From the NCBI RefSeq assembly GCF_988243305.1, contig NZ_OZ547136.1: a stretch of 64,000 nt of DNA, one strand, 5' to 3'. Both the position numbers and the translations under genes were made by a program. Each line of letters starts with the position of its first letter. Positions within the stretch are counted from its first letter, which is position 1. A model generated the notes under the pieces. The model saw nothing but the letters and a program-made list of their open reading frames with translations, was not told the DNA's origin and did no database searches. Shown piece by piece: positions 10,737-45,474 of this stretch.

Positions 10737-11249
10737 TTAAATCGCAGCTTCCATTTCCAGCATCACCGGATGGAAACGGCGTTTAAAGTAGATAAGTCCG
10801 TGACCTTCTGCACTGAGGATGATGTTTTTAATCTCCACCAGATACACCAGATGTGTGCCAATTGCCTGCACATCGCGGATCTCACCTTCAAGACTGGCCA
10901 GCGAACCTTTTAGCACCGGCTGCGCCAGCGGACCTTTTTGCCAGCATGAGAGGCTAAAACGCTCTTCCATCGCCATGCCTGTCATGCCCGCGAAGTGGCG
11001 TGCCATCAGTTCCTGCTCATGGTTGAGGACGTTGACGCACAACTTGCCGTTGCCCTGAAAAACCGGGTTCATCGCACTGTTGGCGTTAATGCACACCATC
11101 AGCGACGGTGGTGTATCCGTGACCGAGCAGACAGCCGTTGCCGTAATCCCGCATTGTCCGGCGTCGCCCTCGGTGGTGATAATATTTACCGCTGCCGACA
11201 GGCTGGCCATTGCGTCACGAAAGCGCAGGCGTTGTTCATCTAATTGCAT
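10737..11249 (-). CDS. hpaC: 4-hydroxyphenylacetate 3-monooxygenase reductase component HpaC (flavin reductase)
   Basis: 170-aa flavin-reductase-like ORF immediately downstream of hpaB; part of the colinear hpa cluster. Confidence 0.88.
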   Translation of the reverse strand: MQLDEQRLRFRDAMASLSAAVNIITTEGDAGQCGITATAVCSVTDTPPSLMVCINANSAMNPVFQGNGKLCVNVLNHEQELMARHFAGMTGMAMEERFSLSCWQKGPLAQPVLKGSLASLEGEIRDVQAIGTHLVYLVEIKNIILSAEGHGLIYFKRRFHPVMLEMEAAI

Positions 11250-11266
11250 CTTAACCTCCTGCTGCG

Positions 11267-12829
11267 TTATTTCAGCAGCTTATCCAGCATGTTGATATCG
11301 TCGTTGTTGTGCAGGTGCGGCACAGTCCAGCCGTTCTGGTCGTATTCCGACAGGCAGCGATCAACCATCGCCATCATCTTGTCCATATTGCCGGAGCTTT
11401 GTGCCTGGCGCAGACACTGCAGGCGAATCTCATCCTGGCTACCGGAGTAGTTGATTTCATACAGTTCGTGACGACCACCAAATTCGCTGCCAATAGCATC
11501 CCACATCAGTTTGAGGATCTTGATGCGCTGGACGTGATCCATACCGTTCGAACCGCGCACATACTTCGCCAGATACTGGTCGATCTGCGGATTGTTCAGG
11601 TCACGGGCACTGGAAGGGAGATAGATCAGGCCACTGGTAACGTTGCGTTCGATAATGTTTTTGATCTTCGCGTAGGCCATTGGTGCCAGTACGCGATAGG
11701 TTTGCAGTGCGGCATGATCCGGTAAATAAGCCCCGTTGACCCACGGCGTCGCTTCTGAACACATCGAGTCACTCAATGCCCAGAAGGTGTTGCGCCACGC
11801 CACCACTTCACCGAGATCGGCCTGCACACCACGGAACTCCAGGGTGCCGGTACATTCGAGTGATTTTTTCAGCAGTGCCGTAATGAAGTCGAGTTTCACT
11901 GCCAGGCGCACACAGGCTTGCAGCGGATACATACGGGCGAAACCGCCTTCCATCGTCCAGCGACGGCAGCGATCAAAATCGCGGTAGATCAGCACGTTTT
12001 CCCATGGGATCAGCACGTTATCCATCACCAGAATCGCATCGTTCTCATCGAAGCGGCTGGAGAGCGGGTAGTCGTACGGCGAGCCGGTAGCACCCGCGAC
12101 CATCTCATAAGAGGCGCGGGAGATTAATTTCACGCCATCGGCATCCATTGGCGCAACGAACATCAGTGCGAAGTCCGGGTTTTCGCCCATCACTTGTGCC
12201 GAGCCGAAGCCAATCATGTTGTAGTGAGTCAGCGCCGAGTTGGTGGCAACCACTTTCGCACCGCTGACGATAATCCCGGCGTCAATCTCTTTTTCCAGCT
12301 TGATGTAAACGTCTTTCACTTTATCGGTCGGCAAATGACGATCAATCGGTGGGTTAACAATCGCGTGGTTAAAGTAGAGGCCAGTTTCCTGAATACGGGT
12401 GTACCAGTTACGGGCGTTCTGCTCGAACTGACCGTAAAAGCCCGGATTCGCGCCCAGTGCGCAACCGAAAGCAGCCTTGTAGTCTGGGGTACGGCCCATC
12501 CAGCCATAGCTCAGGCGTGACCACTCAGCGATGGCGTCGCGTTGCTGGCGCAGGTCGTCGGCACTTTTCGCCACGCGGAAGAATTTATGGGTATAGCCGC
12601 CGCTGCCGGTGTCGGTGTTCCAACACAGAGAGTCCTGCATCTCCGGTTTGTGCAGCGCGTCGTACAGTTGGGCAACAGACGCTGCCGCATTACGAAATGC
12701 CGGATGAGTGGTGACGTCTTTCACTCGCTCGCCATAGATATAGATCTCGCGACCATCCTGCAGGCTTTTCAGATACTCTTCCCCGGTGAACGGACGTTGG
12801 GTACTGGCGCGGAAATCTTCTGGTTTCAT
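11267..12829 (-). CDS. hpaB: 4-hydroxyphenylacetate 3-monooxygenase oxygenase component HpaB (520 aa)
   Basis: 520-aa ORF MKPEDFRASTQRPFTGEEYLKSLQDGREIYIYGERV... matches recalled HpaB. Confidence 0.92.
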   Translation of the reverse strand: MKPEDFRASTQRPFTGEEYLKSLQDGREIYIYGERVKDVTTHPAFRNAAASVAQLYDALHKPEMQDSLCWNTDTGSGGYTHKFFRVAKSADDLRQQRDAIAEWSRLSYGWMGRTPDYKAAFGCALGANPGFYGQFEQNARNWYTRIQETGLYFNHAIVNPPIDRHLPTDKVKDVYIKLEKEIDAGIIVSGAKVVATNSALTHYNMIGFGSAQVMGENPDFALMFVAPMDADGVKLISRASYEMVAGATGSPYDYPLSSRFDENDAILVMDNVLIPWENVLIYRDFDRCRRWTMEGGFARMYPLQACVRLAVKLDFITALLKKSLECTGTLEFRGVQADLGEVVAWRNTFWALSDSMCSEATPWVNGAYLPDHAALQTYRVLAPMAYAKIKNIIERNVTSGLIYLPSSARDLNNPQIDQYLAKYVRGSNGMDHVQRIKILKLMWDAIGSEFGGRHELYEINYSGSQDEIRLQCLRQAQSSGNMDKMMAMVDRCLSEYDQNGWTVPHLHNNDDINMLDKLLK

Positions 12830-13055
12830 GTCGACCTCTACAGTATTAATCGGAATACGATTGTTAATTTTGTGTGTTGTTTTTGTTATTCAATTGAATC
12901 GTTGAACGCGGTTGTCGGGAAGAGACGTTTCAGGCGAACGTTGGTACTTTTCGCCAGCAAGGTGGAGTTAAATAGTAAACTGCGATCGTGATCAACTTAC
13001 AGTAAGGCAAATCATAATATTCCCCGCTAACAAGGGCTAACGGGGACGGAATTGT
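12830..13055 (-). promoter_or_regulatory. Upstream region of hpaBC (expected HpaA-activated promoter)
   Basis: 226-bp non-coding gap upstream of hpaB. Inferred from known hpa regulation; no binding site mapped. Confidence 0.35.
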
Positions 13056-13994
13056 TTATGGGGCGAATGGAATGGTAATCGTCATATTTTCATGACCAAC
13101 GACGATAGGGCCTGAATAGTTTTTCTGTGCTTCTTGCTTCCATGTTTCATCCGGAACGGTGATTGGTACCAGGTGGCTAAGGATGAGTTTTTTCACTTTT
13201 GCTTCATTGGCAATTTTGCCTACATCCTCAATAGTCGTATGGTGAGAAGCAATGGCTTTTGCCAGTGTTTTACCATTGCCAATACTGTCTGCCAGCTTAG
13301 CGACGGAGGGCTCATGTACGGCCTCATGCACAAGTATATCAGCGCCTTCTGAGAAAGTTGCCAGTGGGGGAAAGTACGAGGTATCTCCTGAGAAGACAAT
13401 TCGCTTGCCTTGTGTGTCGAAGCGATAAGCAAAAGCCTCACCGTCAGGGAAAGGAGAATGAGGAACCTTTAATGCAGTCACGGTCACGGTATCATCTTTA
13501 TAAACTACGCCTTCACCAACATCTTGAGCTGTAACGAGCTTGCGAGGATCGGGTTTTCCTTCTTCTTCCATACGCAGTGTGATGTCCCGATCGAAGACCT
13601 GCCAACTGGCAGCGGTCATGGCTCGGGTACCTGGCGGACCGAACACATGAATATTTTTGTCCTGCAGACCGCTAGCCCATGCATTCATTAAGACTGAGGG
13701 ATAGTCCAGAATATGATCACTGTGTAAATGGGTGAGTAAAATATTATCAATCTGGCGCAGTGGAATATTATTTTTTACCAGTTGTAAGCTGGCCCCGTAA
13801 CCAGCATCAATTAACCATGTTTTATTGCCAATAATAAGTGCCGTTGCCATCGGCAAACGGTCAGCTTTTAATAAAGAAGGGCCACCTTTCGTTCCAAGTA
13901 GTACAATTTTCATTTCTTGCAGTTCGGAGGCGTAGGTGAATGCCACTGGCGCAATCAGGCACGCCACAAATAGTGAGCGTAAAGATATTTTCAT
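13056..13994 (-). CDS. Secreted metallo-beta-lactamase-fold hydrolase (HLHSDH motif, signal peptide), about 312 aa
   Basis: ORF track 13056..14051. Start set at MKISLRSLFVACLIAPVAFTYA (signal-peptide-like). HxHxDH motif (LTHLHSDHILDYP). Sits between hpaA and hpaB. Confidence 0.7.
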   Translation of the reverse strand: MKISLRSLFVACLIAPVAFTYASELQEMKIVLLGTKGGPSLLKADRLPMATALIIGNKTWLIDAGYGASLQLVKNNIPLRQIDNILLTHLHSDHILDYPSVLMNAWASGLQDKNIHVFGPPGTRAMTAASWQVFDRDITLRMEEEGKPDPRKLVTAQDVGEGVVYKDDTVTVTALKVPHSPFPDGEAFAYRFDTQGKRIVFSGDTSYFPPLATFSEGADILVHEAVHEPSVAKLADSIGNGKTLAKAIASHHTTIEDVGKIANEAKVKKLILSHLVPITVPDETWKQEAQKNYSGPIVVGHENMTITIPFAP

Positions 13995-14020
13995 GTCGAG
14001 TCTCTCAGGTTGATAAATGG

Positions 14021-14914
14021 TCAGCGACCACGGAATTGTGTTGGTGAGCAACCCATCATTCGGTTGAAAAAACGGGCGAAATAGGCGGGATCTTTGTAGC
14101 CAAGATCAAGGGCAATCTGGTTGATGCTTTGCTCGCTATAGAGCAGAAGCCGTCTGGCTTCCCGGCTCATTCGTTCGAAAATCAATCTCTTCGGCGATTG
14201 ATTGGCAAAACGTCGGCATAGCTCGGTAAGCCGTGATTCACTCATACCGAGCATTGCTGCATATTCAGGGACCATTAAATGTTGGCGATAATTTTCGTCA
14301 ATCAGCCGATTAAACTTCTGGAATAAACACATCTCGCCGCGCACGCTGCATGTTGAAATATCATTTGGTGGTGCTTCACGCAGTAGGATTGTAAAAATAC
14401 TTTGCGCCAGTGATTGCAATAGAATTTCCCGTCCTGGCTTATTTTGTTGAAACTCCAGGGATATTATCGGCCAATAATGATTTAATGCCGCCAGTGTATG
14501 TTCCATTCCCTCCAGCGACAGACAGATACCTTGTAGCATTGCGGCATCTCCACTACCAGGCCAGAGCTTTTCTACCAGGGGCCAAATTAACTCCTGACGT
14601 ACGGTCAGAACATGCCCGTCGCTATCAGGCTCAGTAAAGAAAGTATGTGGCACCGATGGTGGTGTTAGTACAAAAAGCGGTGCGCGCACAGAATAGAAGT
14701 GCTCATCCAGCTGTAAAGTAATGCGTCCAGTGACCAGATAATGGAGTTGAAAATATCTATCGTGCCAGTGAGGGCGCATATCGCGTCCAAAGAAATTCGC
14801 TAACCTGGCAAATGTTTCATAATGCACATCTTCACCAGCGTAGCGGGCATCATATTCCCGGACCAAATCAATATTTTCATAACCATGTTCAAAGATAGCT
14901 TCACTGGACATCAT
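14021..14914 (-). CDS. hpaA: AraC/XylS-family activator HpaA of hpaBC
   Basis: 297-aa ORF with a C-terminal AraC-type HTH (…YKDPAYFARFFNRMMGCSPTQFR), positioned between hpaX and hpaB. Confidence 0.85.
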   Translation of the reverse strand: MMSSEAIFEHGYENIDLVREYDARYAGEDVHYETFARLANFFGRDMRPHWHDRYFQLHYLVTGRITLQLDEHFYSVRAPLFVLTPPSVPHTFFTEPDSDGHVLTVRQELIWPLVEKLWPGSGDAAMLQGICLSLEGMEHTLAALNHYWPIISLEFQQNKPGREILLQSLAQSIFTILLREAPPNDISTCSVRGEMCLFQKFNRLIDENYRQHLMVPEYAAMLGMSESRLTELCRRFANQSPKRLIFERMSREARRLLLYSEQSINQIALDLGYKDPAYFARFFNRMMGCSPTQFRGR

Positions 14915-14920
14915 GACTCC

Positions 14921-16288
14921 TTATTGCGGTTTTGGTGCGATAAGTTCAGATGAAAGAGAGTGTTCCCGACTCCCCATAGGAATTCGGGTCATGACTAACG
15001 CGCCCAGTACCAGTAATCCTGCTACAAACCACAAACCTGAGCTAAAACTGCCGGTTGCATCTTTCAAAATACCGATAAGTAATGGACTGACTGCTGAACC
15101 TACATTACCGACAGCATTGATGACAGCCATCGCAACGGCACGCGATTGCAAGCTTATTACTTGATCCGGTGTCGTCCAAAAGATAGCCATTGCGGTAAAT
15201 GATCCCATTGAGGCCATAATGATGCCGCTCAGTTGAATGAGGCTGTGATCAGTCGCAGAAGCGAGTAACCATCCGGCAGCGGCAAACAGGTAGGGAAGAA
15301 TCGTATGCTTTTTGCGTTCTTTAAGACGGTCGGAACGACGACTCCACCAGATCATGCCAAAAATTGTGCAGAATTGGGGGATGGCCGCCAGCAAACCAAT
15401 CATGATGTTGCTACTGCCAGTATTGAAACTCTGTAGGATTTGCGGCGTCCAGATATTAATCGCACTCAGAGTATTGGTCAGGCAAAAATAAGCAAGTGTA
15501 TATAGCATGATGGCTGGGGTCAGGACTTCACGTAAGGTTGAGCGTGGAACAGATGCATGGGCAAATGCACTCTCTTGTTCACGGAGAATCATCGTTTTTA
15601 AAGCCTGTTTTTCGTTTTCATCAAGCCAGGTCGCCTGGTCTGGTGTATCGTTGAGATAAAACCAGGTGACGACACCAAGAATGACCGATGGCAGACCTTC
15701 CAGCAAAAAGAGCCATTGCCAGCCTTTTAGATTCCACAGTCCATCCAAGGCCAGAATGTAGCCTGAAAGGATCGATCCCAGCATCATAGTGACTGGCATC
15801 GCTATCATAAATAAGGCATTGGCTCTGGCCCGATGATATGCCGGGAACCACCAGGTCAGATAAACCAAAATACCAGGTAAAAAACCCGCCTCAGCAATAC
15901 CAACCAGCATACGCAGTAGATAGAGTGTTTCGGGGCTTGTTGCAAACATTGTGCAGGTGGAAGCAACTCCCCAGACCACCATGATCCCAGCGATCCATCG
16001 ACGAGCGCCAATTTTCGCTAACATCATATTACTGGGGATCCCGCACATGACGTACGTGACATAAAAGAGTGTCGCGGCGAGGCCAAACATTGTGGACGTC
16101 AGGCCAAGATCCTTGCCCATTGTCAGTCCGGCAAATCCTATATTGATGCGATCAAGAAACGAAAAAACAAACAGAATAAAAAGAAAAATGATTAGGCGAC
16201 GAAATAATTTATTAATGACACGATGTTCAATTTCAACAGTTTTATTATCTTTATATTGCAGGGTAGAGGTCGTCATGATGCGCTCCAC
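14921..16288 (-). CDS. hpaX: MFS 4-hydroxyphenylacetate transporter HpaX
   Basis: 455-aa 12-TM MFS protein in the hpa cluster. Confidence 0.85.
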   Translation of the reverse strand: MERIMTTSTLQYKDNKTVEIEHRVINKLFRRLIIFLFILFVFSFLDRINIGFAGLTMGKDLGLTSTMFGLAATLFYVTYVMCGIPSNMMLAKIGARRWIAGIMVVWGVASTCTMFATSPETLYLLRMLVGIAEAGFLPGILVYLTWWFPAYHRARANALFMIAMPVTMMLGSILSGYILALDGLWNLKGWQWLFLLEGLPSVILGVVTWFYLNDTPDQATWLDENEKQALKTMILREQESAFAHASVPRSTLREVLTPAIMLYTLAYFCLTNTLSAINIWTPQILQSFNTGSSNIMIGLLAAIPQFCTIFGMIWWSRRSDRLKERKKHTILPYLFAAAGWLLASATDHSLIQLSGIIMASMGSFTAMAIFWTTPDQVISLQSRAVAMAVINAVGNVGSAVSPLLIGILKDATGSFSSGLWFVAGLLVLGALVMTRIPMGSREHSLSSELIAPKPQ

Positions 16289-16297
16289 ATCGTACGT

Positions 16298-17101
16298 TTA
16301 GTAGACAGAGTTGTTGTTTTGCTTCGCCATCGAAATAGAAGAACTATTACCAAACCGTGCTGCCAGCGCTTCGGCGGCGCGGGCGAGCAGGGTGGTGTCA
16401 ACGCCGACGGCGACAAATAGCGCGCCCAGTTCCAGGTAGTGTTTTGCCAGTTGCTCATTGGCGATCAGGATACCCGGCGCCTTACCCGCTTCGCGGATCT
16501 GCACGATCGCCTGCTCAATCGCGGCCTGCACTTCCGGGTGTTGCGGATTACCGGCATAACCCATATCGGCGCTCAGATCCGCCGGGCCGATAAACACGCC
16601 GTCGACGCCTTCCACGTCCAGAATCTGCGGTAAGTTCTTCATTGCCTCACGCGTTTCGATCTGCACCAGTACGCACATTTGATCGTTGGCTTTTTGCAGG
16701 TAATCCGGAATACGGTTCCAGCGCGAGGCGCGTGCCAGCGCACTGCCCACACCGCGAATACCGGCGGGGGGATAACGGGTGGCGCGTACCGCTTCACGGG
16801 CTTCGTCGGCGTTTTGTACCATCGGCACCAGTAAGGTTTGTGTGCCGACGTCCAGCAGTTGTTTGATTTGCACCGGATCGTTCCACGATGGGCGTATCAC
16901 CGGCTGGCTGGGGTAGGGCGCAATCGCCTGTAGCTGGGTGAGCACGGTTTGCACGTTATTCGGCGCGTGCTCACCGTCGATCAATAACCAGTCGAATCCT
17001 GCTCCGGCCAGTAACTCTGCGCTGTAGCTGCTACTCAGCCCCAGCCATAATCCGATCTGCGGGCGGCCTGCTTTCAGCGCCGCTTTAAAACTGTTTTCCA
17101 T
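16298..17101 (-). CDS. hpaI: 4-hydroxy-2-oxoheptanedioate (HpaI) aldolase
   Basis: ORF track 16298..17242. Start trimmed to [19 protein letters not shown], the HpcH/HpaI aldolase N-terminus, 10 nt downstream of the hpaH stop. Confidence 0.85.
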
Positions 17102-17111
17102 CGTTCTCTCC

Positions 17112-17915
17112 TTAAACAAAGCGGCAGCTAATGGAGCCCATGTTGCCGTAATCGACGTGGAAGGTGTCGCCCTTACGCGCCGGAACCGGGCGGGTGAACG
17201 AACCGCCGAGAATGATTTGCCCGGCTTCCAGTTGTACGTCATACGGTGCGAGTTTGTTCGCCAGCCAGGCTACGCCGTTTGCCGGATGATTCAGCACACC
17301 AGCGGCGACGCCGGTTTCTTCAATCACGCCATTGCGATACATCAGGGCGGAGATCCAGCGCAGATCCAACTCATCGGGCTTAATGGGACGACCGCCGAGG
17401 ATCACCCCGGCGTTGGCGGCGTTATCGGAAATGGTGTCGAACACTTTGCGCGGGCGCTGGGTTTCCGGATCGATGTTGTGGCAGCGAGCGTCGATCAGCT
17501 CCAGCGCCGGGATCACATAATCCGTGGCGTTGTAGACGTCGAACAGCGTGCAGTTTGGTCCACGCAGCGGTTTTGCCAGCACGAAAGCCAGCTCCACTTC
17601 AATGCGCGGCACGATAAAGCGATCGGTCGGGATATCGCTGCCATCGTGGAAGAACATGTCATCCAGCAGGGCACCGTAATCCGGTTCGCTGATTTGCGAG
17701 CTGGCCTGCATCGCTTTCGAGGTCAGGCCGATTTTGTGGCCTTTCAGCGTACGGCCTTCGGCAATTTTCAGGCGGACCCATTCGCGCTGCACCGCGTAAG
17801 CGTCTTCGATGGTGATCTCCGGGTAATCCAGCGAGATCGCGCGGATCTGTTCGCGCTGTTTTTCTGCCTGATCCAGACGCTGGGCGATCAGGGTGTGGGT
17901 GTGTTTATCGAACAT
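17112..17915 (-). CDS. hpaH: 2-oxo-hept-4-ene-1,7-dioate hydratase HpaH
   Basis: Start set at [20 protein letters not shown] (267 aa). Confidence 0.85.
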
Positions 17916-17982
17916 GGCGATATCCTGTGGCATTGCCGGATGCGGCTGCGCCTTATCATCCGGCCTGGAAGCTGGTACAAAT

Positions 17983-18363
17983 TTATTTAAACAACGCGTG
18001 TACGTTGTTCTGTTTGAAATTCAACGTCGGGTGCAGCTCTGCAATCTCAAATGAAAGCGCCAGGTAACGGCTCTCCATCAGTGAGGCGAAGTGCGTTTTA
18101 ATCAGATCAAACAGCATTTCGCCTACTTCCTGACGGCTTTCCAGACTGCGCCCGCTGCCGATTTTTAGCGTCATATGCACAAAGGCGTAATCGTGCTTGC
18201 CATCAGCCATTTGCCAGGTATCGATCCAGTGCGCCCGGCTACGTATTCCCCCAAGCGGAAAAATCCCCGTCGCCGCCAGTGCAGTGTTAACACTGGCAAA
18301 CAGCTCAGGTAAGCGGGCTTCTTGACGAATATTTTCAGTACATTCCACGATAAAGTGCGGCAT
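17983..18363 (-). CDS. hpaF: 5-carboxymethyl-2-hydroxymuconate delta-isomerase HpaF
   Basis: 126-aa [25 protein letters not shown].... Confidence 0.85.
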
Positions 18364-18372
18364 GGTGGTTCC

Positions 18373-19224
18373 TTACGCGGGAAGCGGGAAAACAGCGTTA
18401 ACCTGACCGGTGCCAGAGCTTGGGAACAGCTCGGTGATAAACTCTACCTTGCCGTCGTATTTATCCCAGCCGAGCATCCCCAGCAGCATCACCGTGTCGT
18501 GCATATTGCCTTCGCCGTAGCAGTAGTCAGCGTACTCCGGCAGCATATTGCAGAACTCTTTGAACTGGCCTTCGCGCCACAACTTCACCACGCGCTCGTC
18601 CATCTGGCGGTCGAACTCGCGGGTGTAGCTGTTCATCCCTTCTTCCGCACGCTGATCGTCAATAAAGCGGTGCGATAATGAACCGCTGGCAAGGACCGCC
18701 ACGGTGCCGTCGTACTGTTCGATCGCTTTCAGAATCGCTTCGCCCAGCTTGCGGCTGTCGGCAAAATCATGAACGGTACAGAATGCGGAGATGGAGACCA
18801 CTTTGAAGTGCTTGTCTTCATTCATGTAGCGCATTGGCACCAGCGTGCCGTATTCCAGTTTCAGGCTGGGAATGTTGTGCGCTTTTGCCCGCACGCCGAG
18901 CTTTAAGGCTTCATCGGCAATTAGCTGCCCCAACTCCGGGTTGCCCTCGTAGTTGTAGGTCATGTCACGAATAAAATGCGGCAGCTCGTTACTGGTGTAG
19001 ACGCCTTCAAAATGGTCTGCACAGTTGATGTGATAAGCACTGTTGACCAGCCAGTGAGTATCGAAAACGATAATGGTATCGACGCCCATTTCCCGGCAAC
19101 GCTTGCTGATCTCTTTATGCCCGTCGATCGCGCCCTGGCGGCAACCGTGGTTTTTCCCTGGCAGTTCAGAGAGATACATCGACGGTACGTGCGTGATCTT
19201 GGCGGCTAACGCTAACTTACCCAT
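18373..19224 (-). CDS. hpaD: 3,4-dihydroxyphenylacetate 2,3-dioxygenase HpaD
   Basis: 283-aa extradiol dioxygenase-like ORF, 1 nt downstream of hpaE. Confidence 0.88.
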   Translation of the reverse strand: MGKLALAAKITHVPSMYLSELPGKNHGCRQGAIDGHKEISKRCREMGVDTIIVFDTHWLVNSAYHINCADHFEGVYTSNELPHFIRDMTYNYEGNPELGQLIADEALKLGVRAKAHNIPSLKLEYGTLVPMRYMNEDKHFKVVSISAFCTVHDFADSRKLGEAILKAIEQYDGTVAVLASGSLSHRFIDDQRAEEGMNSYTREFDRQMDERVVKLWREGQFKEFCNMLPEYADYCYGEGNMHDTVMLLGMLGWDKYDGKVEFITELFPSSGTGQVNAVFPLPA

Positions 19225-19225
19225 A

Positions 19226-20692
19226 TCAGACTCCCCATTTCGGAATTGGATGGTCGCCCATGGAAATGCAGACGTTCTTCATTTCCGCGAACACTTCGAA
19301 GCTGTACTCACCGCCTTCACGCCCGGTGCCGGAGGCTTTTACGCCGCCAAATGGCTGGCGCAGGTCACGCACGTTCTGGGTGTTGACGAACACCATGCCA
19401 GCTTCAATGCCACGCGCCAGGCGTAACACTTTGCTGACATCCTGTGTCCAGATGTACGACGCGAGGCCGTACTCCACGTCGTTTGCCAGACGTAAGCCTT
19501 CGGCTTCGTCTTTAAACGGCAGCAGGCAGGCGACCGGCCCGAAAATCTCTTCCTGGGCGACTCGCATACGGTTATCAACGTCTGCCAGCACGGTTGGGCG
19601 CAGGAAGTTGCCGCCTTTCAGGTGCGCAGGCAGGTCGGACGGTTTATCCGGACCGCCCGCCAGCAGGGTTGCGCCTTCTTCAATGCCGAGACGAATATAG
19701 CCGGAGACTTTTTCCCAGTGTTGCTGGCTGATAAGCGCCCCAACCTGGGTATTCGGATCGTTCGGATCGCCCACGCGCAGACGGTTGGCGCGTTCGGCAA
19801 AGCGTTTAACGAATTCCGGGTAGATGCTTTGCTGAATAAAGATGCGCGAACCGGCGGTGCAGCGCTCGCCGTTGATCGAGAAGATGGTGAACAGGGCAGC
19901 GTCCAGCGCGCGTTCAATATCGGCATCTTCAAAAATCAGCACCGGCGATTTACCGCCCAGTTCCATGGAGTATTTTTTCAGCCCGGCGTTTTTCATGATG
20001 TTGCGCCCGGTGGCCGTACCGCCGGTGAACGACACGGCACGTACGTCATGATGACGAACCAGCGCATCGCCTGCGGTTGCGCCGTAGCCCTGTACCACGT
20101 TCAGCACGCCCGCCGGAATACCGGCTTCCAGCGCCAGCTCACCCAGGCGGTCAGCGGTCAGCGGGGAGAGTTCCGACATTTTCAACACCGCGGTATTGCC
20201 CAGCGCCAGACACGGCGCGACCTTCCATGTGGCGGTCATAAACGGCACGTTCCACGGCGATACCAGCGCACAAACGCCTACCGGTTGCACCAGCGTGTAG
20301 TTGAGCATCTTGTCGTCAACCGGATAGGTCTTGCCGTTCATCTGCTGGCAGACTTCCGCGAAAAATTCAAAGTTGTGAGAAGCGCGTGGGATCAATACAT
20401 TTTTGGTCTGATGGATCGGCAGGCCCGTGTCCGCGGTTTCCATCGCGGCGATCTCAGGCACGTTCTGGTCGATCAGATCGCCCAGACGGCGCATCAGGCG
20501 CGCACGCTCTTTCATCGGCAGATTGGCCCATTTCGGGAACGCCTCTTTCGCTGCCGCTACCGCCTGATTGATCTCCGCTTCACCGCCGGAGGCCACATCT
20601 GCCAGCACTTCACCCGTTGCCGGATTGGTGGTCTGGAAGTAGTCGTTACCTGCAACATTTTTGCCGTTGATCCAATGATTTACTTTTTTCAT
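19226..20692 (-). CDS. hpaE: 5-carboxymethyl-2-hydroxymuconate semialdehyde dehydrogenase HpaE
   Basis: 488-aa aldehyde dehydrogenase family ORF; overlaps the hpaG stop by 4 nt. Confidence 0.9.
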   Translation of the reverse strand: MKKVNHWINGKNVAGNDYFQTTNPATGEVLADVASGGEAEINQAVAAAKEAFPKWANLPMKERARLMRRLGDLIDQNVPEIAAMETADTGLPIHQTKNVLIPRASHNFEFFAEVCQQMNGKTYPVDDKMLNYTLVQPVGVCALVSPWNVPFMTATWKVAPCLALGNTAVLKMSELSPLTADRLGELALEAGIPAGVLNVVQGYGATAGDALVRHHDVRAVSFTGGTATGRNIMKNAGLKKYSMELGGKSPVLIFEDADIERALDAALFTIFSINGERCTAGSRIFIQQSIYPEFVKRFAERANRLRVGDPNDPNTQVGALISQQHWEKVSGYIRLGIEEGATLLAGGPDKPSDLPAHLKGGNFLRPTVLADVDNRMRVAQEEIFGPVACLLPFKDEAEGLRLANDVEYGLASYIWTQDVSKVLRLARGIEAGMVFVNTQNVRDLRQPFGGVKASGTGREGGEYSFEVFAEMKNVCISMGDHPIPKWGV

Positions 20693-21978
20693 TTCGCTGT
20701 TTCCTCACTCACAATTCGGTTCACCAGGCGGCCCACGCCTTCTACTTCCACCACTACTTCATCGCCAGGCACCACGTCAGATAAGCCTTTTGGTGTGCCG
20801 GTGGCGATCATGTCGCCCGGATTCAGGGTCATAAATTCGCTTAAGTAGGCGATCAGGAAGGGCACGCTGAAGATCAGATCGGCGGTGGTGCCTTGCTGGC
20901 GTAACTCGCCGTTGACGAAGGTGCGAAGGGTCAGATTATGCGGGGCCGGGATCGCCTCTTTCGGCACGATGGTTGAAAGCATCGGCGTCAGTCCGTCGCG
21001 GCTTTTTACCCGCAGGTTAGGGCGGTAGTAGTTTTCCAGATAGTCGCGAATGGCGTAGTCGTTACACACGGTGTAGCCCGCGACATAATCCATGGCATCG
21101 GCTTCGCTGACGTTACGCGCCTGCTTGCCAATAACTACCACCAGCTCCGCTTCGTAGTGCATGTATTCAATATTGTTCGGGCGCACGGAGGTCTGGTTAT
21201 CGCCAGTGAGGGTATTCGGCGCTTTCAGGAACACCAGCGGTTCTTCCGGTGGCTTAAATTCCAGTTCGCTGGCGTGGTCGGCGTAGTTCAGGCCGAGGGC
21301 AAACAGCGTGCCGTGCGGGTGTGGCTGCGTTGGGAAGCTCTTGCGCGTGGTCACTTCACGTTCGTCCACTACCGGATTTTCCAGTGGCGGGAAACCTTCT
21401 GCGAGAACACGCACGCGATCGCCTGGCTGTATTTCCACGCGCGCCTGTGGCGTGCCGAGCAGAATGGCATCGCCTGGATTCAGCGTGGCAAATTCGCTCA
21501 GGGCGCTCAGCAACTGTGCGGCGTTACGTTGTAAATCGGCGGTATTCCAGTGATCGGCAGGACGCCCGTTGATCTCGGTATAGATAGTCAGATTATCGAC
21601 ATTGCTGAGAGCCACGGTTTCGCCAATGGGGCAGAATCCATCACGACATTTTGCTTTGATTGCCGGGCGGTAAAAGCTCTCTTCCGGCAGGCTGACGTCG
21701 TTAGCCAGCGCATATCCGGCGATGTACTCTGCCGCATCTTCTTCACGTACTTTCGTCGCCGTTTTCCCCACCATCAACGCAACAGTCGCACCGCTCAGTA
21801 CCTTTTCACCCTGTGGAAAGGGAATCCGTTCACCGCAACCAATCACCGTATTGCGCGGTTTAATAAACCAGACCGCAGTTTTAGGCGGGGTTTTGTAGGG
21901 GGATTGCTGGAACGCTTCCTGCCATGCATCAAGCTGGCTGCGATGGTTCAACGCTACGGCGAAGATAGTGCCTTTCAT
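20689..21978 (-). CDS. hpaG: Bifunctional 5-oxopent-3-ene-1,2,5-tricarboxylate decarboxylase / isomerase HpaG
   Basis: Duplicated FAH-fold protein. Start at MKGTIFAVALNHRSQLDAWQ (429 aa). Confidence 0.9.
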   Translation of the reverse strand: MKGTIFAVALNHRSQLDAWQEAFQQSPYKTPPKTAVWFIKPRNTVIGCGERIPFPQGEKVLSGATVALMVGKTATKVREEDAAEYIAGYALANDVSLPEESFYRPAIKAKCRDGFCPIGETVALSNVDNLTIYTEINGRPADHWNTADLQRNAAQLLSALSEFATLNPGDAILLGTPQARVEIQPGDRVRVLAEGFPPLENPVVDEREVTTRKSFPTQPHPHGTLFALGLNYADHASELEFKPPEEPLVFLKAPNTLTGDNQTSVRPNNIEYMHYEAELVVVIGKQARNVSEADAMDYVAGYTVCNDYAIRDYLENYYRPNLRVKSRDGLTPMLSTIVPKEAIPAPHNLTLRTFVNGELRQQGTTADLIFSVPFLIAYLSEFMTLNPGDMIATGTPKGLSDVVPGDEVVVEVEGVGRLVNRIVSEETAK

Positions 21979-22249
21979 TACCACTCCTCGGATTCGATCA
22001 TCTTAATCATTAATATGTTAATGATTACTTTTATTCCCGATTGCGTAGTTTGGCAAAAGTAAGTGATGTAAATGTGATCTAATTAACAAACTATTTACAT
22101 TTGCAGGTAATAAAATACTAAATATCAGTAAGTTAATAAAGTATGCTCAATTTTGATAAAATGAGGAATTGCGGGGATAGCTCAGTCCCGGTAACGTGAT
22201 GATTAACTGTTTCTATATTAATGATTTTGAATTTTTCAGGGGAAAGATA
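21979..22249. promoter_or_regulatory. Divergent hpaG-operon / hpaR promoter-operator region
   Basis: 271-bp AT-rich intergenic region between divergent hpaG and hpaR. Function inferred from known hpa regulation; no sites mapped. Confidence 0.45.
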
Positions 22250-22696
22250 ATGCACGACTCACTAACCATTGCGTTGCTCCAGGCGCGAGAAGCGGCGATG
22301 AGTTATTTTCGCCCAATCGTTAAACGGCATAATTTGACTGAGCAACAGTGGCGCATCGTGCGTATTCTGGCGGAAAGCCCATCAATGGATTTTCACGATC
22401 TGGCGTATCGCGCCTGCATTTTGCGCCCAAGCCTGACCGGGATCCTCACGCGGATGGAACGCGACGGTTTAGTGTTGCGATTAAAGCCGATCAATGATCA
22501 GCGGAAGCTCTATATCTCGCTGACCAAAGAGGGGCAGGCGCTGTATAACCGCGCTCAGACACAGATTGAAGAGGCCTATCGGCAGATTGAAGCTCAGTTT
22601 ACTGCCGAGAAAATGCAACAGTTAACCCATCTGTTAGAGGAATTTATTGCTCTGGGTAATTCCCGACAAGAAGACATCCCGGGCGATAATGAATAA
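22250..22696 (+). CDS. hpaR: MarR-family repressor HpaR
   Basis: ORF track 22196..22696. Start set at the ATG at 22250 (GGGGAAAG SD upstream), MHDSLTIALLQAREAAMSYFRP..., 148 aa. Confidence 0.85.
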   Translation: MHDSLTIALLQAREAAMSYFRPIVKRHNLTEQQWRIVRILAESPSMDFHDLAYRACILRPSLTGILTRMERDGLVLRLKPINDQRKLYISLTKEGQALYNRAQTQIEEAYRQIEAQFTAEKMQQLTHLLEEFIALGNSRQEDIPGDNE

Positions 22697-22814: not shown

Positions 22815-24479
22815 ATGTTAAAACGTATCAAAATTGTGACCAGCTTACTGCTGGTTTTGGCCGTTTTTGGCCTTTTACAACTGACATCAGGCGGTCTGTT
22901 CTTTAATGCCTTAAAGAATGACAAAGAAAATTTCACTGTTTTACAAACCATTCGCCAGCAGCAATCCACGCTGAATGGCAGCTGGGTCGCGTTGTTGCAG
23001 ACGCGTAACACCCTCAACCGCGCGGGTATCCGCTACATGATGGATCAGAATAATATTGGTAGCGGTTCAACCGTTGCTGAGCTGATGCAGAGTGCCAGTA
23101 TTTCGCTGAAACAGGCGGAAAAAAACTGGGCGGATTACGAAGCGTTGCCGCGTGACCCGCATCAGAGCACCGCCGCAGCGGCAGAGATCAAACGTAATTA
23201 CGATATTTATCACAATGCGCTGGCGGAGCTGATCCAACTGTTAGGTGCAGGCAAAATCAACGAGTTCTTTGATCAGCCAACCCAGGGATATCAGGACGGT
23301 TTCGAGAAGCAGTATGTGGCTTACATGGAGCAAAACGATCGGCTCTATGATATCGCCGTCAGCGATAATAATGCCTCCTACAGCCAGGCGATGTGGATCC
23401 TGGTGGGCGTGATGATCGTCGTACTGGCAGTCATCTTCGCCGTCTGGTTCGGTATTAAAGCCTCGTTGGTAGCGCCAATGAATCGCCTGATTGACAGCAT
23501 TCGTCATATTGCAGGCGGCGATCTGGTGAAACCGATTGAGGTGGATGGCTCTAATGAGATGGGGCAACTGGCAGAGAGTTTGCGCCATATGCAGGGAGAG
23601 CTGATGCGAACCGTCGGTGATGTGCGCAACGGGGCCAATGCCATCTATAGCGGTGCCAGCGAAATCGCCACCGGCAATAACGATCTCTCTTCGCGCACCG
23701 AGCAACAGGCCGCTTCGCTGGAAGAGACGGCAGCCAGCATGGAGCAACTGACCGCAACGGTGAAACAGAACGCCGAGAATGCGCGTCAGGCCAGCCATCT
23801 GGCGTTAAGTGCTTCTGAAACGGCGCAACGCGGCGGCAAAGTGGTGGATAACGTAGTACAGACCATGCGCGATATCTCCACCAGTTCGCAGAAAATCGCC
23901 GATATTATCAGCGTAATTGACGGCATTGCCTTCCAGACCAATATTCTGGCTTTGAACGCGGCGGTTGAGGCTGCGCGTGCGGGTGAGCAAGGGCGCGGTT
24001 TTGCGGTGGTCGCGGGAGAAGTGCGTAATCTGGCCCAGCGCAGCGCCCAGGCGGCTCGTGAAATTAAAAGCCTGATTGAAGACTCGGTGGGGAAAGTGGA
24101 TGTTGGCTCTACGCTGGTCGAAAGCGCCGGGGAAACAATGGCGGAGATTGTCAGTGCCGTGACCCGCGTGACGGACATTATGGGCGAAATTGCTTCTGCT
24201 TCTGATGAGCAGAGCCGTGGTATCGATCAGGTTGGATTAGCGGTTGCTGAGATGGACCGGGTAACTCAACAGAACGCCGCGCTGGTGGAAGAATCTGCCG
24301 CCGCCGCTGCCGCGCTGGAAGAGCAGGCCAGTCGCCTGACCGAAGCTGTGGCAGTGTTCCGGATTCAGCAACAGCAGCAACAGCAGCGTGAAACATCGGC
24401 TGTAGTAAAAACCGTGACGCCAGCTACGCCGCGTAAAATGGCCGTGGCAGATAGCGGCGAGAACTGGGAAACGTTTTAA
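22815..24479 (+). CDS. tsr: Methyl-accepting chemotaxis protein I (serine chemoreceptor) Tsr, 554 aa
   Basis: Full-length match to recalled Tsr, including the C-terminal NWETF pentapeptide. Carries a 7-Gln run ([11 protein letters not shown]) in the C-terminal linker. Confidence 0.95.
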
Positions 24480-24488
24480 TCGCCATAA

Positions 24489-24521
24489 AAATGCCCGATA
24501 AGCAAAATGTTATCGGGCATA
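24489..24521. terminator. Bidirectional stem-loop terminator between convergent tsr and lgoT
   Basis: Inverted repeat ATGCCCGATAA...TTATCGGGCAT in the 48-bp convergent gap. Confidence 0.5.
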
Positions 24522-24527
24522 GGGAGT

Positions 24528-25889
24528 TTAATCTTTACGCGGGTCGTTGATCGGCTGACGAACCAGGAAGATGTACGCCAGTGCCCCCGCTGCGGTGACG
24601 CAACCGCAGATGATTAGTGCCAGACGGAATGAGTGGGTGGTATCAACAATAAAACCAGTAATGATCGGCGCGAAAGAGGCGCAGATGAAGCTGGCAAAGT
24701 TCTGGATACTGCCCACCGACGCCGTCATGCGAGAAGCAACTGCGACGTGGATCAAGCCCCAGCAGGATGTTCCGGCAAAGTGAATACAAAACAGTGCCAT
24801 GCCAATCAGCAGAACCGCTGTCATGGATGTTGTCGCTTGCGGTACGACCAGCGTAAAGGCGGCAGAACAGAACATCCCGGCAATAATGCAGATCTTACGG
24901 CTTTTAATCGGAGCCATTCCCCCTTTGACCAGCCAGTCGGTAACGTAACCGTTGACCAGCATCCCGGCAGCCCCAAACAGGAAAGGGATAGCCGCCATCA
25001 ATCCTGTGCTTTTTAAATCCAGGTTATAGGCTGTTTGCAGGTAACCAGGAAGCCAGGCCAGATACAGCCACGCAGTGTAGTTGATGCCACTGAATCCGAG
25101 CATCATTCCCCACATTGTGCGGTTACGGAACAGGCTGCGCCATTCGGCAAAACTGAGCGGATCTCGGCGGGCATTGACGCTACCTGCATTGAGATAAGCT
25201 TGTTCAACGGCAGTCAGTTCTACGTGCTCGCGGTTGCGATAGAGCATATACCAGCCGATGGCGAGAAAAATCCCCAGTACACCAATGGTAATAAACATCC
25301 CGCGCCAGCCCATCACCAGCATCATCGCCGCCAGAATCGGTGGGCTTACGGCAACGCCAATGGTAGAAGCTGCGTTGAAGAAGCCCATCGGGCGTCCGCG
25401 CTCTTTGATGTTGAACCAGTCGTTAATGACTTTTACACCGCATGGGTTCATCGGCGCTTCACCAATCCCCATACCGATACGCACCAACACGAACTGCGTA
25501 AAGCTGTGCACCATGCCAGACATGGCCTGGAACAGTGACCAGAAGAACATCCCCAGTCCCAGCATCAGGCGTGGGCCTTTACGATCCAATAGTGGGCCGC
25601 AAGGAAGTTGCGCAATCCCGTAAGCGAGTGAAAACACGGAGAGCAAAGCGCCGATTTCGGTGGCACTTAATCCCAATTCTTCACGAATCGTTAAATTTGC
25701 TACCGACAGCGAACTGCGGTCGAGATAATTGATTACCGCCGCAAAAAATAATAACAACATGGCGGTGGTTTGAATGCGTTTAATTCGGGTACTGCGTTGA
25801 ACTAATCCATCTGGTGGCACGGGAATATCTGCCGACGAAGATGGAGTAAATGAAGAACGCGGATCGAGGGTGATATTTTCTTTTTCCAC
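24528..25889 (-). CDS. lgoT: MFS L-galactonate transporter LgoT (YjiZ)
   Basis: 453-aa MFS protein, syntenic with lgoR and lgoD. Confidence 0.88.
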   Translation of the reverse strand: MEKENITLDPRSSFTPSSSADIPVPPDGLVQRSTRIKRIQTTAMLLLFFAAVINYLDRSSLSVANLTIREELGLSATEIGALLSVFSLAYGIAQLPCGPLLDRKGPRLMLGLGMFFWSLFQAMSGMVHSFTQFVLVRIGMGIGEAPMNPCGVKVINDWFNIKERGRPMGFFNAASTIGVAVSPPILAAMMLVMGWRGMFITIGVLGIFLAIGWYMLYRNREHVELTAVEQAYLNAGSVNARRDPLSFAEWRSLFRNRTMWGMMLGFSGINYTAWLYLAWLPGYLQTAYNLDLKSTGLMAAIPFLFGAAGMLVNGYVTDWLVKGGMAPIKSRKICIIAGMFCSAAFTLVVPQATTSMTAVLLIGMALFCIHFAGTSCWGLIHVAVASRMTASVGSIQNFASFICASFAPIITGFIVDTTHSFRLALIICGCVTAAGALAYIFLVRQPINDPRKD

Positions 25890-44582: not shown

Positions 44583-45358
44583 TTTGCCGTTTTATCGACA
44601 CCCACTGCCATTTTGATTTCCCGCCGTTTAGTGGCGATGAAGAGTCCAGCCTGCAACGCGCGGCACAAGCGGGCGTAGGCAAGATCATTGTTCCGTCAAC
44701 CGAGGCGGAAAATTTTGCCCGCGTGCAGGCGTTAGCGGAAAAATATCAACCGCTGTATGCCGCATTGGGCTTGCATCCTGGTATGTTGGAAAAACATAGC
44801 GATGTGTCTCTTGATCAGCTACAGCAGGCGCTGGAAAGGCATCCGGCGAAGGTGGTAGCGGTGGGGGAGATCGGCCTGGATCTCTTTGGCGACGATCCGC
44901 AATTTGAGAGGCAGCAGTGGTTACTCGACGAACAACTGAAACTGGCGAAACGCTACGATCTGCCGGTGATCCTGCATTCACGGCGCACACACGACAAACT
45001 GGCGATGCATCTTAAACTCCACGATTTGCCGCGCTCTGGCGTGGTTCATGGTTTTTCCGGCAGCCTGCAACAGGCCGAACGGTTTGTACAGCTGGGCTAC
45101 AAAATCGGCGTAGGCGGTACTATCACCTATCCACGCGCCAGTAAAACCCGCGATGTCATCGCAAAATTACCGCTGGCATCGTTGTTGCTGGAAACCGACG
45201 CGCCGGATATGCCGCTCAACGGTTTTCAGGGGCAGCCTAACCGCCCGGAACAGGCCGCGCGGGTGTTTGACGTGCTTTGCGAGTTGCGTCCGGAACCAGC
45301 GGATGAGATTGCGCAAGCGTTGCTAAATAATACGTATACGTTGTTTAACGTGCCGTAG
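44579..45358 (+). CDS. yjjV: TatD-family metal-dependent deoxyribonuclease YjjV
   Basis: 259-aa ORF with the HCHFD motif; overlaps the yjjU stop by 4 nt. Confidence 0.9.
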   Translation: MICRFIDTHCHFDFPPFSGDEESSLQRAAQAGVGKIIVPSTEAENFARVQALAEKYQPLYAALGLHPGMLEKHSDVSLDQLQQALERHPAKVVAVGEIGLDLFGDDPQFERQQWLLDEQLKLAKRYDLPVILHSRRTHDKLAMHLKLHDLPRSGVVHGFSGSLQQAERFVQLGYKIGVGGTITYPRASKTRDVIAKLPLASLLLETDAPDMPLNGFQGQPNRPEQAARVFDVLCELRPEPADEIAQALLNNTYTLFNVP

Positions 45359-45360
45359 GC

Positions 45361-45445
45361 CGGACAAGGCGTTCACGCCGCATCCGGCAGTTGGCGCACA
45401 ATGTCTGATGCGACGCTTGACGCGTCTTATCAGACCTACAAGTCT
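45361..45445. repeat. REP (repetitive extragenic palindromic) element(s)
   Basis: CGGACAAGGCGTTCACGCCGCATCCGGCA ... GCCGTATCCGGCATG are canonical REP-type palindromes between convergent yjjV and yjjW. Confidence 0.55.
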
Positions 45446-45474
45446 GTGCCGAACCATAGGCCGTATCCGGCATG

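Follow-up and report, generated by a model that had tools for sequence, protein, structure and literature searches.

The seven-glutamine tract of Escherichia coli Tsr, very probably a two-copy allele of an in-frame 9-bp tandem repeat at the start of the receptor tether

The C-terminal pentapeptide NWETF of chemoreceptors is held by an unstructured tether of ~30-35 residues, which raises the local concentration of CheR and phospho-CheB around the methylation sites. Linkers found in nature are 29 to 91 residues long, and those of 29-39 residues occur together in one organism. When the tether of Tar was set to 22, 29 or 46 residues, the fitted CheR position moved by 0.128 ± 0.048 nm per residue (PMC10561060). 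The Tsr tether is quoted in the same work as 30 residues, counted from I517, and this figure was found to be that of the K-12 allele.

The Tsr described here is encoded in a window of 64,000 nucleotides (the whole stretch of DNA that was analysed; contig NZ_OZ547136.1 of RefSeq assembly GCF_988243305.1). Its translation carries the Pfam domains TarH (residues 1-176, E 7.6e-55), HAMP (217-263) and MCPsignal (327-484, E 2.3e-62), all three exceeding the curated cut-offs and standing in the order of a Tsr-type MCP. Strain M7424 was found to be collinear with the window at 99.4% identity across the first 31 kb, and its RefSeq annotation places tsr at identical coordinates, flanked by hpaR and lgoT, the two tsr genes differing at one base. 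Domains and annotation bear out the name tsr given in the preliminary description of this DNA. The window protein equals WP_000919571.1, the RefSeq Tsr shared by M7424 and O157:H7 strains, save for R116H; that protein likewise has seven Gln and 554 aa, with Arg116 where the window has His116. Differing from it by one residue and lying in the conserved position between hpaR and lgoT, the gene is orthologous to E. coli tsr.

K-12 Tsr (551 aa; WP_000919536.1; the sequence of PDB 6S1K) is like the window Tsr in gene, in the 3' neighbour lgoT, in domain order and in NWETF. It differs in having one repeat unit (four Gln, 30-residue tether) rather than two (seven Gln, 33 residues) and by five substitutions, given from K-12 to the window in K-12 numbering (E92Q, R116H, H178Y, A535T and E545G); bar the tract, the proteins are otherwise identical. 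K-12 is without the hpa cluster, which in the window lies upstream of tsr. The seven-Gln tail is also found in PDB 3ZX6, where residues 83-341 of chain A match the C-terminal 259 residues of the window Tsr exactly. Unlike the window Tsr, 3ZX6 is an engineered HAMP-Tsr chimera, of which the Tsr part has seven Gln.

The following features were located in the window:

22815..24479, plus strand: tsr coding sequence, stop included, for the serine chemoreceptor of 554 aa (from the open reading frame, Pfam and the M7424 annotation)
24363..24461, plus strand: variable C-terminal tether, I517-E549, 33 residues (from conservation, AF2 pLDDT, structures and PMC10561060)
24366..24386, plus strand: Gln7 tract, residues 518-524, two complete copies of CAGCAACAG and then CAG (from the sequence and Tandem Repeats Finder)
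24366..24374, plus strand: repeat unit 1, CAGCAACAG, Gln-Gln-Gln (from the sequence and Tandem Repeats Finder)
24375..24383, plus strand: repeat unit 2, CAGCAACAG, matching unit 1 even at the synonymous CAA
24462..24476, plus strand: codons of the NWETF pentapeptide, docking site of CheR and CheB-P (from translation and conservation, the function from the literature)
24491..24520, no strand assigned: terminator-like inverted repeat with an 11-bp stem between the convergent tsr and lgoT, with the T-run on the minus strand (from a consensus scan only)

Positions 24366-24386 read cag caa cag cag caa cag cag, exactly as described before, in frame with the open reading frame at 22815..24479 (+), and encode Gln518-Gln524 of the 554-aa Tsr. 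Tandem Repeats Finder revealed a best period of 9 with the unit CAGCAACAG, present head to tail in 2.4 copies with a 100% match over 24366-24387, and a period-3 reading of the tract matched at just 78%. In alignments, unit 1 is the block missing from K-12-type alleles, the choice of which unit takes the gap being arbitrary. No other perfect short tandem duplication, defined as 12 or more matching bases at an offset of 4-30, occurs in the 64-kb window, and 30 shuffles gave none. Gln7 was also the longest single-amino-acid run among all long open frames of the window, and when the residues of Tsr were shuffled 20,000 times, runs of at least seven identical residues arose in 13 cases; the tract is no chance feature. 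On the minus strand over the tract, a search for overlapping open reading frames of at least 100 aa yielded none.

The position of the tract in the protein was derived from an alignment of 81 orthologues, whose columns are fully or almost fully conserved as far as F515, R516 and I517, lose conservation until R540 and K541, and regain it there and in NWETF, where W551, E552 and F554 are invariant and N550 and T553 nearly so. The pentapeptide thus stands at the extreme C terminus (residues 550-554) behind a non-conserved linker, the disorder of which is taken from the Tar literature. The tract opens at the first variable position, directly after I517 (...AVFRI517), and 25 residues separate it from NWETF. 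Its placement 'just before' the pentapeptide in the preliminary description therefore had to be corrected, since it sits at the helix/tether junction, at the N-terminal start of the tether. This is also about where solved or modelled structure ends: the Tsr chain in the 8C5V entry has 516 residues, and the alignment of 1QU7 to the window protein reaches residue 520. A monomer prediction by AF2, of moderate confidence (mean pLDDT 66.7), continues the final helix to residue 528, the Gln run included, while the pLDDT over residues 501-540 drops through 76, 68, 52 and 35 and lies below 50 from residue 528. As modelled, the Gln residues may form a frayed helical extension.

Allele frequencies were counted in 5,426 complete RefSeq E. 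coli genomes, 5,382 of which match the annotated tsr 3' end. Counting was by allele-specific BLAST queries rather than by full alignment, with E-value limits set to keep other alleles out. Seven Gln (Tsr of 554 aa) were found in 4,055-4,056 of the 5,382 genomes (75%) and four Gln (K-12 type, 551 aa) in 1,209-1,211 (22.5%), these being database frequencies, not population frequencies, in a collection skewed to clinical isolates, K-12 laboratory strains and O157. Ten Gln (557 aa) occurred in 72/5,382 genomes and thirteen (560 aa) in 3/5,382, giving 75 for the two longer alleles together. An allele-specific search for the zero-unit form (one Gln, 548 aa) gave 0/5,382. A recount of the four- and seven-Gln alleles with longer flanks, made against the loss of BLAST seeds through SNPs, added only two genomes and one genome, respectively. 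At the tract, 40 of the 5,382 genomes (0.7%) were unclassified; these may perhaps carry alleles of normal length with several SNPs. A 56-nt query comprising the tract and its flanks was identical in 3,348 genomes.

Alignment at the codon level revealed that the four tracts form a series of whole units, each followed by one CAG: one unit for four Gln (K-12), two for seven (the window, O157 and ST131), three for ten (LF82 and CFE299) and four for thirteen (A13 and Z1323HEC0355). One, two, three and four units were present in 1,211, 4,056, 72 and 3 genomes, respectively, so that strains differ by whole-unit copies. Alleles off by one or two codons were not detected, the identity bands for three, five, six and eight Gln being empty, and the ten-Gln matches listed all span 97 nt. 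Carriers of seven Gln include O157, O103, O111, O104:H4, ST131 and ATCC 8739, among others; carriers of four Gln include every listed K-12 derivative and one BL21 derivative. The window carries the majority E. coli allele, and K-12 has the shorter minority form.

These counts bear on several points of the preliminary description. Its comparison of 554 with 551 aa was accurate, as K-12 MG1655 and DH1 both have 551 aa and read RIQQQQRE, the difference mapping exactly to the Gln tract. The tabulation of Gln-tract length across E. coli proposed there did reveal variation (4, 7, 10 and 13 Gln in 5,382 genomes), and the case envisaged there against an expansion, of seven Gln in all references, does not apply, K-12 and ~22% of the genomes having four. 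That slippage varies the tract holds as far as repeat-mediated gain and loss among E. coli are concerned, but the trinucleotide step does not, the unit being 9 bp. The proposed change in length of the tether bearing NWETF was confirmed, with tethers of 30 (four Gln, K-12), 33 (seven), 36 (ten) and 39 (thirteen) residues, each 9-bp unit adding three. The 'expanded' state did not stand up, since seven Gln are the majority state (4,056/5,382), give the modal length of the family and are also the tail present in PDB 3ZX6. Taken as a whole, the expansion interpretation is partly supported.

For the history of the repeat, full-length tsr genes of 19 E. coli strains were compared with the tract excised (1,656 columns), rare alleles being deliberately included. 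Four Gln occur on four separate tsr haplotypes, namely K-12, strain 3036, ST3 and PMV-1/BEN2908. PMV-1 (four Gln) and WP7-S18 (seven Gln) are alike at all but 2 of 1,656 sites and have in common a SNP (GAA-GCA) 6 nt from the tract; the four-Gln allele of PMV-1 is therefore separate in origin from that of K-12. A single clade with a TRAP-transporter gene downstream holds 13, 10, 7 and 4 Gln, and ten Gln were seen in B2 strains, HS and O104:H21. The tsr gene tree required no fewer than 9 unit steps (8-10 in bootstraps), which points to recurrent independent changes, the number of events being approximate because intragenic recombination may distort the tree and rare alleles were chosen. Within clones, the repeat allele is stable at the assembly level: the listed K-12 derivatives (MG1655, BW25113, DH1, DH5alpha, JM109, TG1, C600 and MC1061) all have four Gln, and HS, LF82 and 8178 have ten in every repeated assembly.

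We conclude that the tract is very probably the two-copy allele of an in-frame 9-bp tandem repeat, the copy number of which shifts recurrently and probably with little functional effect. The unit CAGCAACAG encodes Gln-Gln-Gln and is followed by one extra CAG, with one to four units making up the E. coli series. With its seven residues, the tract opens the variable segment that leads from the cytoplasmic helical bundle to NWETF, a tether that published work on Tar and Tsr regards as largely disordered. Copy number would be altered when 9-bp units misalign in replication or repair, as a shift by 9 bp should leave a perfectly paired intermediate, whereas one by 3 or 6 bp should produce a mismatch at the CAA codons; the exclusive occurrence of three-codon steps fits such perfect pairing. 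Unit changes have arisen repeatedly on different tsr backgrounds, each unit lengthening the tether for CheR and phospho-CheB by three residues.

The direction of change was approached with outgroups. Queried with the ligand-binding half of Tsr, species-representative genomes revealed 80 orthologous loci from Enterobacteriaceae; the scan yielded no E. fergusonii, E. albertii, E. marmotae, E. ruysiae or E. coli representative, and the nearest outgroups are thus two non-coli Escherichia species and the allele of strain UPEC132. The 80 orthologues are 551-557 aa long with a mode of 554 aa, equal to the window protein. At the tract site, they read QQEQQRAR in Citrobacter and Salmonella, QQEQMKAR in Enterobacter, and QQTQQRQH and QQAQQRQH in the two non-coli Escherichia species. 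The QQQQQQQR of the window aligns to these motifs free of gaps, and the longest Gln run that any of the 80 orthologues has here is three. Three E. coli genomes (UPEC132, GN02350 and N50) carry a divergent tsr of 553 aa reading QQEQQRQRE, which, taken in blocks of 150 nt over its entire length, is 80-92% identical to the common tsr; this gene is effectively a third outgroup at the level of Escherichia. Searches with the tails of two cryptic Escherichia species gave either no match or ordinary E. coli at ≤84% identity, and the second of them exposed the divergent UPEC132 allele by chance. Because the outgroup motifs are interrupted and hold at most three Gln in a row, pure poly-Gln is peculiar to mainstream E. 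coli tsr, its relatives having an interrupted Gln-rich motif of equal length. The seven-Gln allele has the length usual in the family, the 551 aa of K-12 being a length outlier.

It is possible, if not the reading we would favour, that the ancestral E. coli tsr had one unit (four Gln), that seven Gln arose by an early duplication and that some four-Gln alleles are relics rather than secondary deletions; in this case, the preliminary description would have had the direction of change right. The two units being identical even at the synonymous CAA fits an earlier duplication. From a UPEC132-like ancestor (CAG CAA GAG CAA CAA CGT CAG CGC GAA), seven Gln can be reached by four directed substitutions alone, or by one substitution, one 9-bp loss and one duplication; the intermediate of the second route is the K-12 tract, bar one synonymous change in the following Arg codon. 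By parsimony, the gene tree favours neither one nor two units at the E. coli root, and the four-Gln ST3 haplotype branches first. A preference for one unit at the root in bootstraps was a mere tie-breaking artefact. Against a one-unit ancestor, all outgroups, the three Escherichia-level lineages included, have the 553-554-aa length, seven Gln are present in every major background sampled, and the four Gln of PMV-1/BEN2908 are clearly a secondary loss from a seven-Gln haplotype; the rooting is also weak, with outgroups ~11% divergent. Whatever the root, the window allele is neither a recent nor an unusual expansion.

As to function, extrapolation from Tar suggests that one unit should move the point where tethered CheR is most likely to be found by ~0.4 nm, an estimate that takes Gln as a flexible chain where AF2 draws a helix instead. 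This is about a third of the methylation-site spacing of 1.05 nm, and extending the calculation to the full natural range of 30-39 residues would give ~1.2 nm. By this analysis, the functional effect of allele length is probably small or near-neutral. That the alleles differ in function and are maintained or selected again and again, tether length tuning how fast or how precisely cells adapt to serine (and AI-2) in different niches, appears unlikely. Such a role would accord with the measurable change in adaptation behaviour caused by engineered Tar tether length, with the repeated changes in copy number, with the presence of long alleles in several unrelated backgrounds, and with a total length kept at 551-557 aa across the family. 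However, a single unit should move CheR only slightly, one organism has natural linkers ranging from 29 to 39 residues, and recurrence is what mutation-prone repeats would give without selection. The more specific idea of the 9-bp unit as a natural, recurrently reset 'length dial', whose alleles of 30, 33, 36 and 39 residues would differ measurably in how fast or how precise adaptation is and be favoured by lineage or habitat, seems rather improbable; if it were true, conclusions on tether geometry derived from K-12 Tsr would describe a minority phenotype. Long alleles were noted in several B2 and commensal backgrounds.

A private, recent expansion in this strain or lineage through slippage of single CAG triplets is highly improbable. 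It would explain why the window Tsr is three codons longer than that of K-12, the extra codons being Gln, but seven Gln in 4,056/5,382 genomes, spread from O157, O103, O111 and O104:H4 to ST131 and ATCC 8739, refute it, and 554 aa is the length of the family at large. Nor is the tract one of CAG triplet expansion, because its changes come in 9-bp steps: the match at period 3 is 78% against 100% at period 9, the bands for 3, 5, 6 and 8 Gln are empty and the ten-Gln span is 97 nt. A phase-variable contingency locus, or a sequencing or assembly artefact of a low-complexity stretch, is barely conceivable even for a simple-sequence repeat within the gene of a surface-signalling protein, since a unit that is a multiple of three never shifts the frame, only 1-4 copies occur, the inspected alleles keep both frame and NWETF, alleles are constant over independent assemblies of the same strain and over K-12 sublines, and the 56-nt query is matched perfectly by 3,348 genomes.

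With the preferred reading of a recurrently shifting 9-bp repeat, the tract is a tandem-repeat polymorphism of an ordinary kind, in frame and low in copy number. The gene and its protein were already known, as were the exact seven-Gln tail and the pentapeptide-tether mechanism; in the literature searched, which covered few subscription papers, no earlier account of the tsr allele series was found. For the biology of this genome, the allele is of little consequence, being the standard non-K-12 form of a very well studied receptor, with the same tail present in thousands of annotated genomes and one PDB entry. Its interest lies in the laboratory reference: K-12 is a minority length variant of 551 aa with a 30-residue tether, while in three of every four sequenced E. 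coli the tether has 33 residues, near the 34 of Tar, and natural alleles reach up to 39. Because K-12 carries a minority allele, models that use a 30-residue Tsr tether and relate the tether difference between Tsr and Tar to methylation-site geometry (PMC10561060) rest on a strain-specific value.

Among known repeat systems, eukaryotic CAG/CAA poly-Gln tracts likewise consist of a mixed CAG/CAA Gln run adjoining a coiled-coil helix. The tsr tract differs from them in comprising only 4-13 residues, in a strict CAG-CAA-CAG order that sets a 9-bp register, and in giving no sign of triplet-by-triplet instability or aggregation biology. Bacterial coding VNTRs of the MLVA type and contingency loci share with it short perfect units and recurrent copy changes between strains; in contrast to these, the tsr repeat has 1-4 copies, stays always in frame without on/off switching and appears stable within clones across the assemblies compared. 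To our knowledge, no MLVA scheme uses the tsr repeat, and a literature search found none either. The engineered Tar tethers (22, 29, 34 and 46 residues; PMC10561060) likewise vary only the number of residues between receptor body and NWETF, and they provide the only quantitative relation of length to function available. They are artificial, vary in larger steps and are altered at the pentapeptide end, whereas the natural Tsr alleles vary at the body-proximal end in steps of three Gln and offer a ready-made set for testing tether models.

Among the E. coli strains compared, the tsr gene of UPEC132, GN02350 and N50 stood apart from the usual E. coli gene, to which it was only 80-92% identical in 150-nt blocks over its whole length. 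This divergence is approximately that of the tsr genes of other Escherichia species, and the encoded Tsr comprises 553 aa, with the tail RIQQEQQRQREALAVNSVAPVAPRKIAVADSGDNWETF. The UPEC132-type tsr is probably a whole-gene import from a divergent lineage, or the relic of one. A different type of change was revealed in strain 500111, where tsr has lost 33 bp in frame, flanked by two copies of GCCGCGCTGG. This deletion takes out 11 residues, including the methyl-accepting glutamate E493 (K-12 numbering), and the annotated length of Tsr in this strain is 543 aa. The positions of these two features are as follows.

L106:100-1761, divergent tsr of UPEC132
approximately window 24282-24314 (corresponding position), tsr deletion of 500111

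Point variants in Tsr were found both at the Gln7 tract and distant from it. In strain 14EC001, the tract reads QQQQQHQ, the change of CAG to CAT disrupting the second 9-bp unit, and in strain WP7-S18, FLI replaces FRI directly before the tract, with loss of the nearly invariant R516. Codon 116 of the window tsr (window 23161) encodes His, where WP_000919571.1 (O157:H7, M7424) and K-12 have Arg; R116H results from one G-to-A change and is located in the periplasmic ligand-binding domain.

Downstream of tsr, the gap separating it from the convergently oriented lgoT measures 48 bp and contains an inverted repeat, flanked on both sides by A/T runs, that looks like a putative two-way terminator common to both genes.

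window 24491-24520, inverted repeat with a perfect 11-bp stem, ATGCCCGATAA...TTATCGGGCAT, in the tsr-lgoT gap

Comparison of the window with the collinear strain M7424 revealed that 59 of the first 60 mismatches are concentrated in window 2477-4620. According to annotation transferred from M7424, the start of the window (1-7000) lies within a defence-gene cluster encoding the S and M subunits of a type I restriction-modification system, an endonuclease with a GmrSD domain, a Fic protein and the antitoxin BrnA. In the DUF2501 gene, 63 bp of the window, located between two copies of CGCTGGCGGC, are missing from M7424; they are located within the 5' part of the gene, the part that specifies the N-terminal portion of the protein. 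This deletion belongs to M7424 and not to the window. Two intergenic length differences, of ~180 bp and ~400 bp, were also detected, and a tandem tRNA-Leu triplet was present as expected for the locus.

window 31254-31308, minus strand, DUF2501 gene site of the 63-bp difference
window 37244-37568, tandem array of three tRNA-Leu genes (2.7 copies at a period of 121 bp)
about window 37745-37762 and 45353-45463, intergenic length differences from M7424

The genes around tsr are mosaic across strains, as evident from comparing window 10737-22696 and 24528-25889 with three loci from other strains (L087, L090 and L096). Upstream of the window tsr lies the hpa (4-hydroxyphenylacetate) cluster, which K-12 is without and whose position is occupied in strain ST3 by a MurR/RpiR regulator gene. 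Downstream, LF82, PMV-1, O103 and others carry TRAP-transporter permease genes; in the window, as in K-12, tsr is followed by lgoT.
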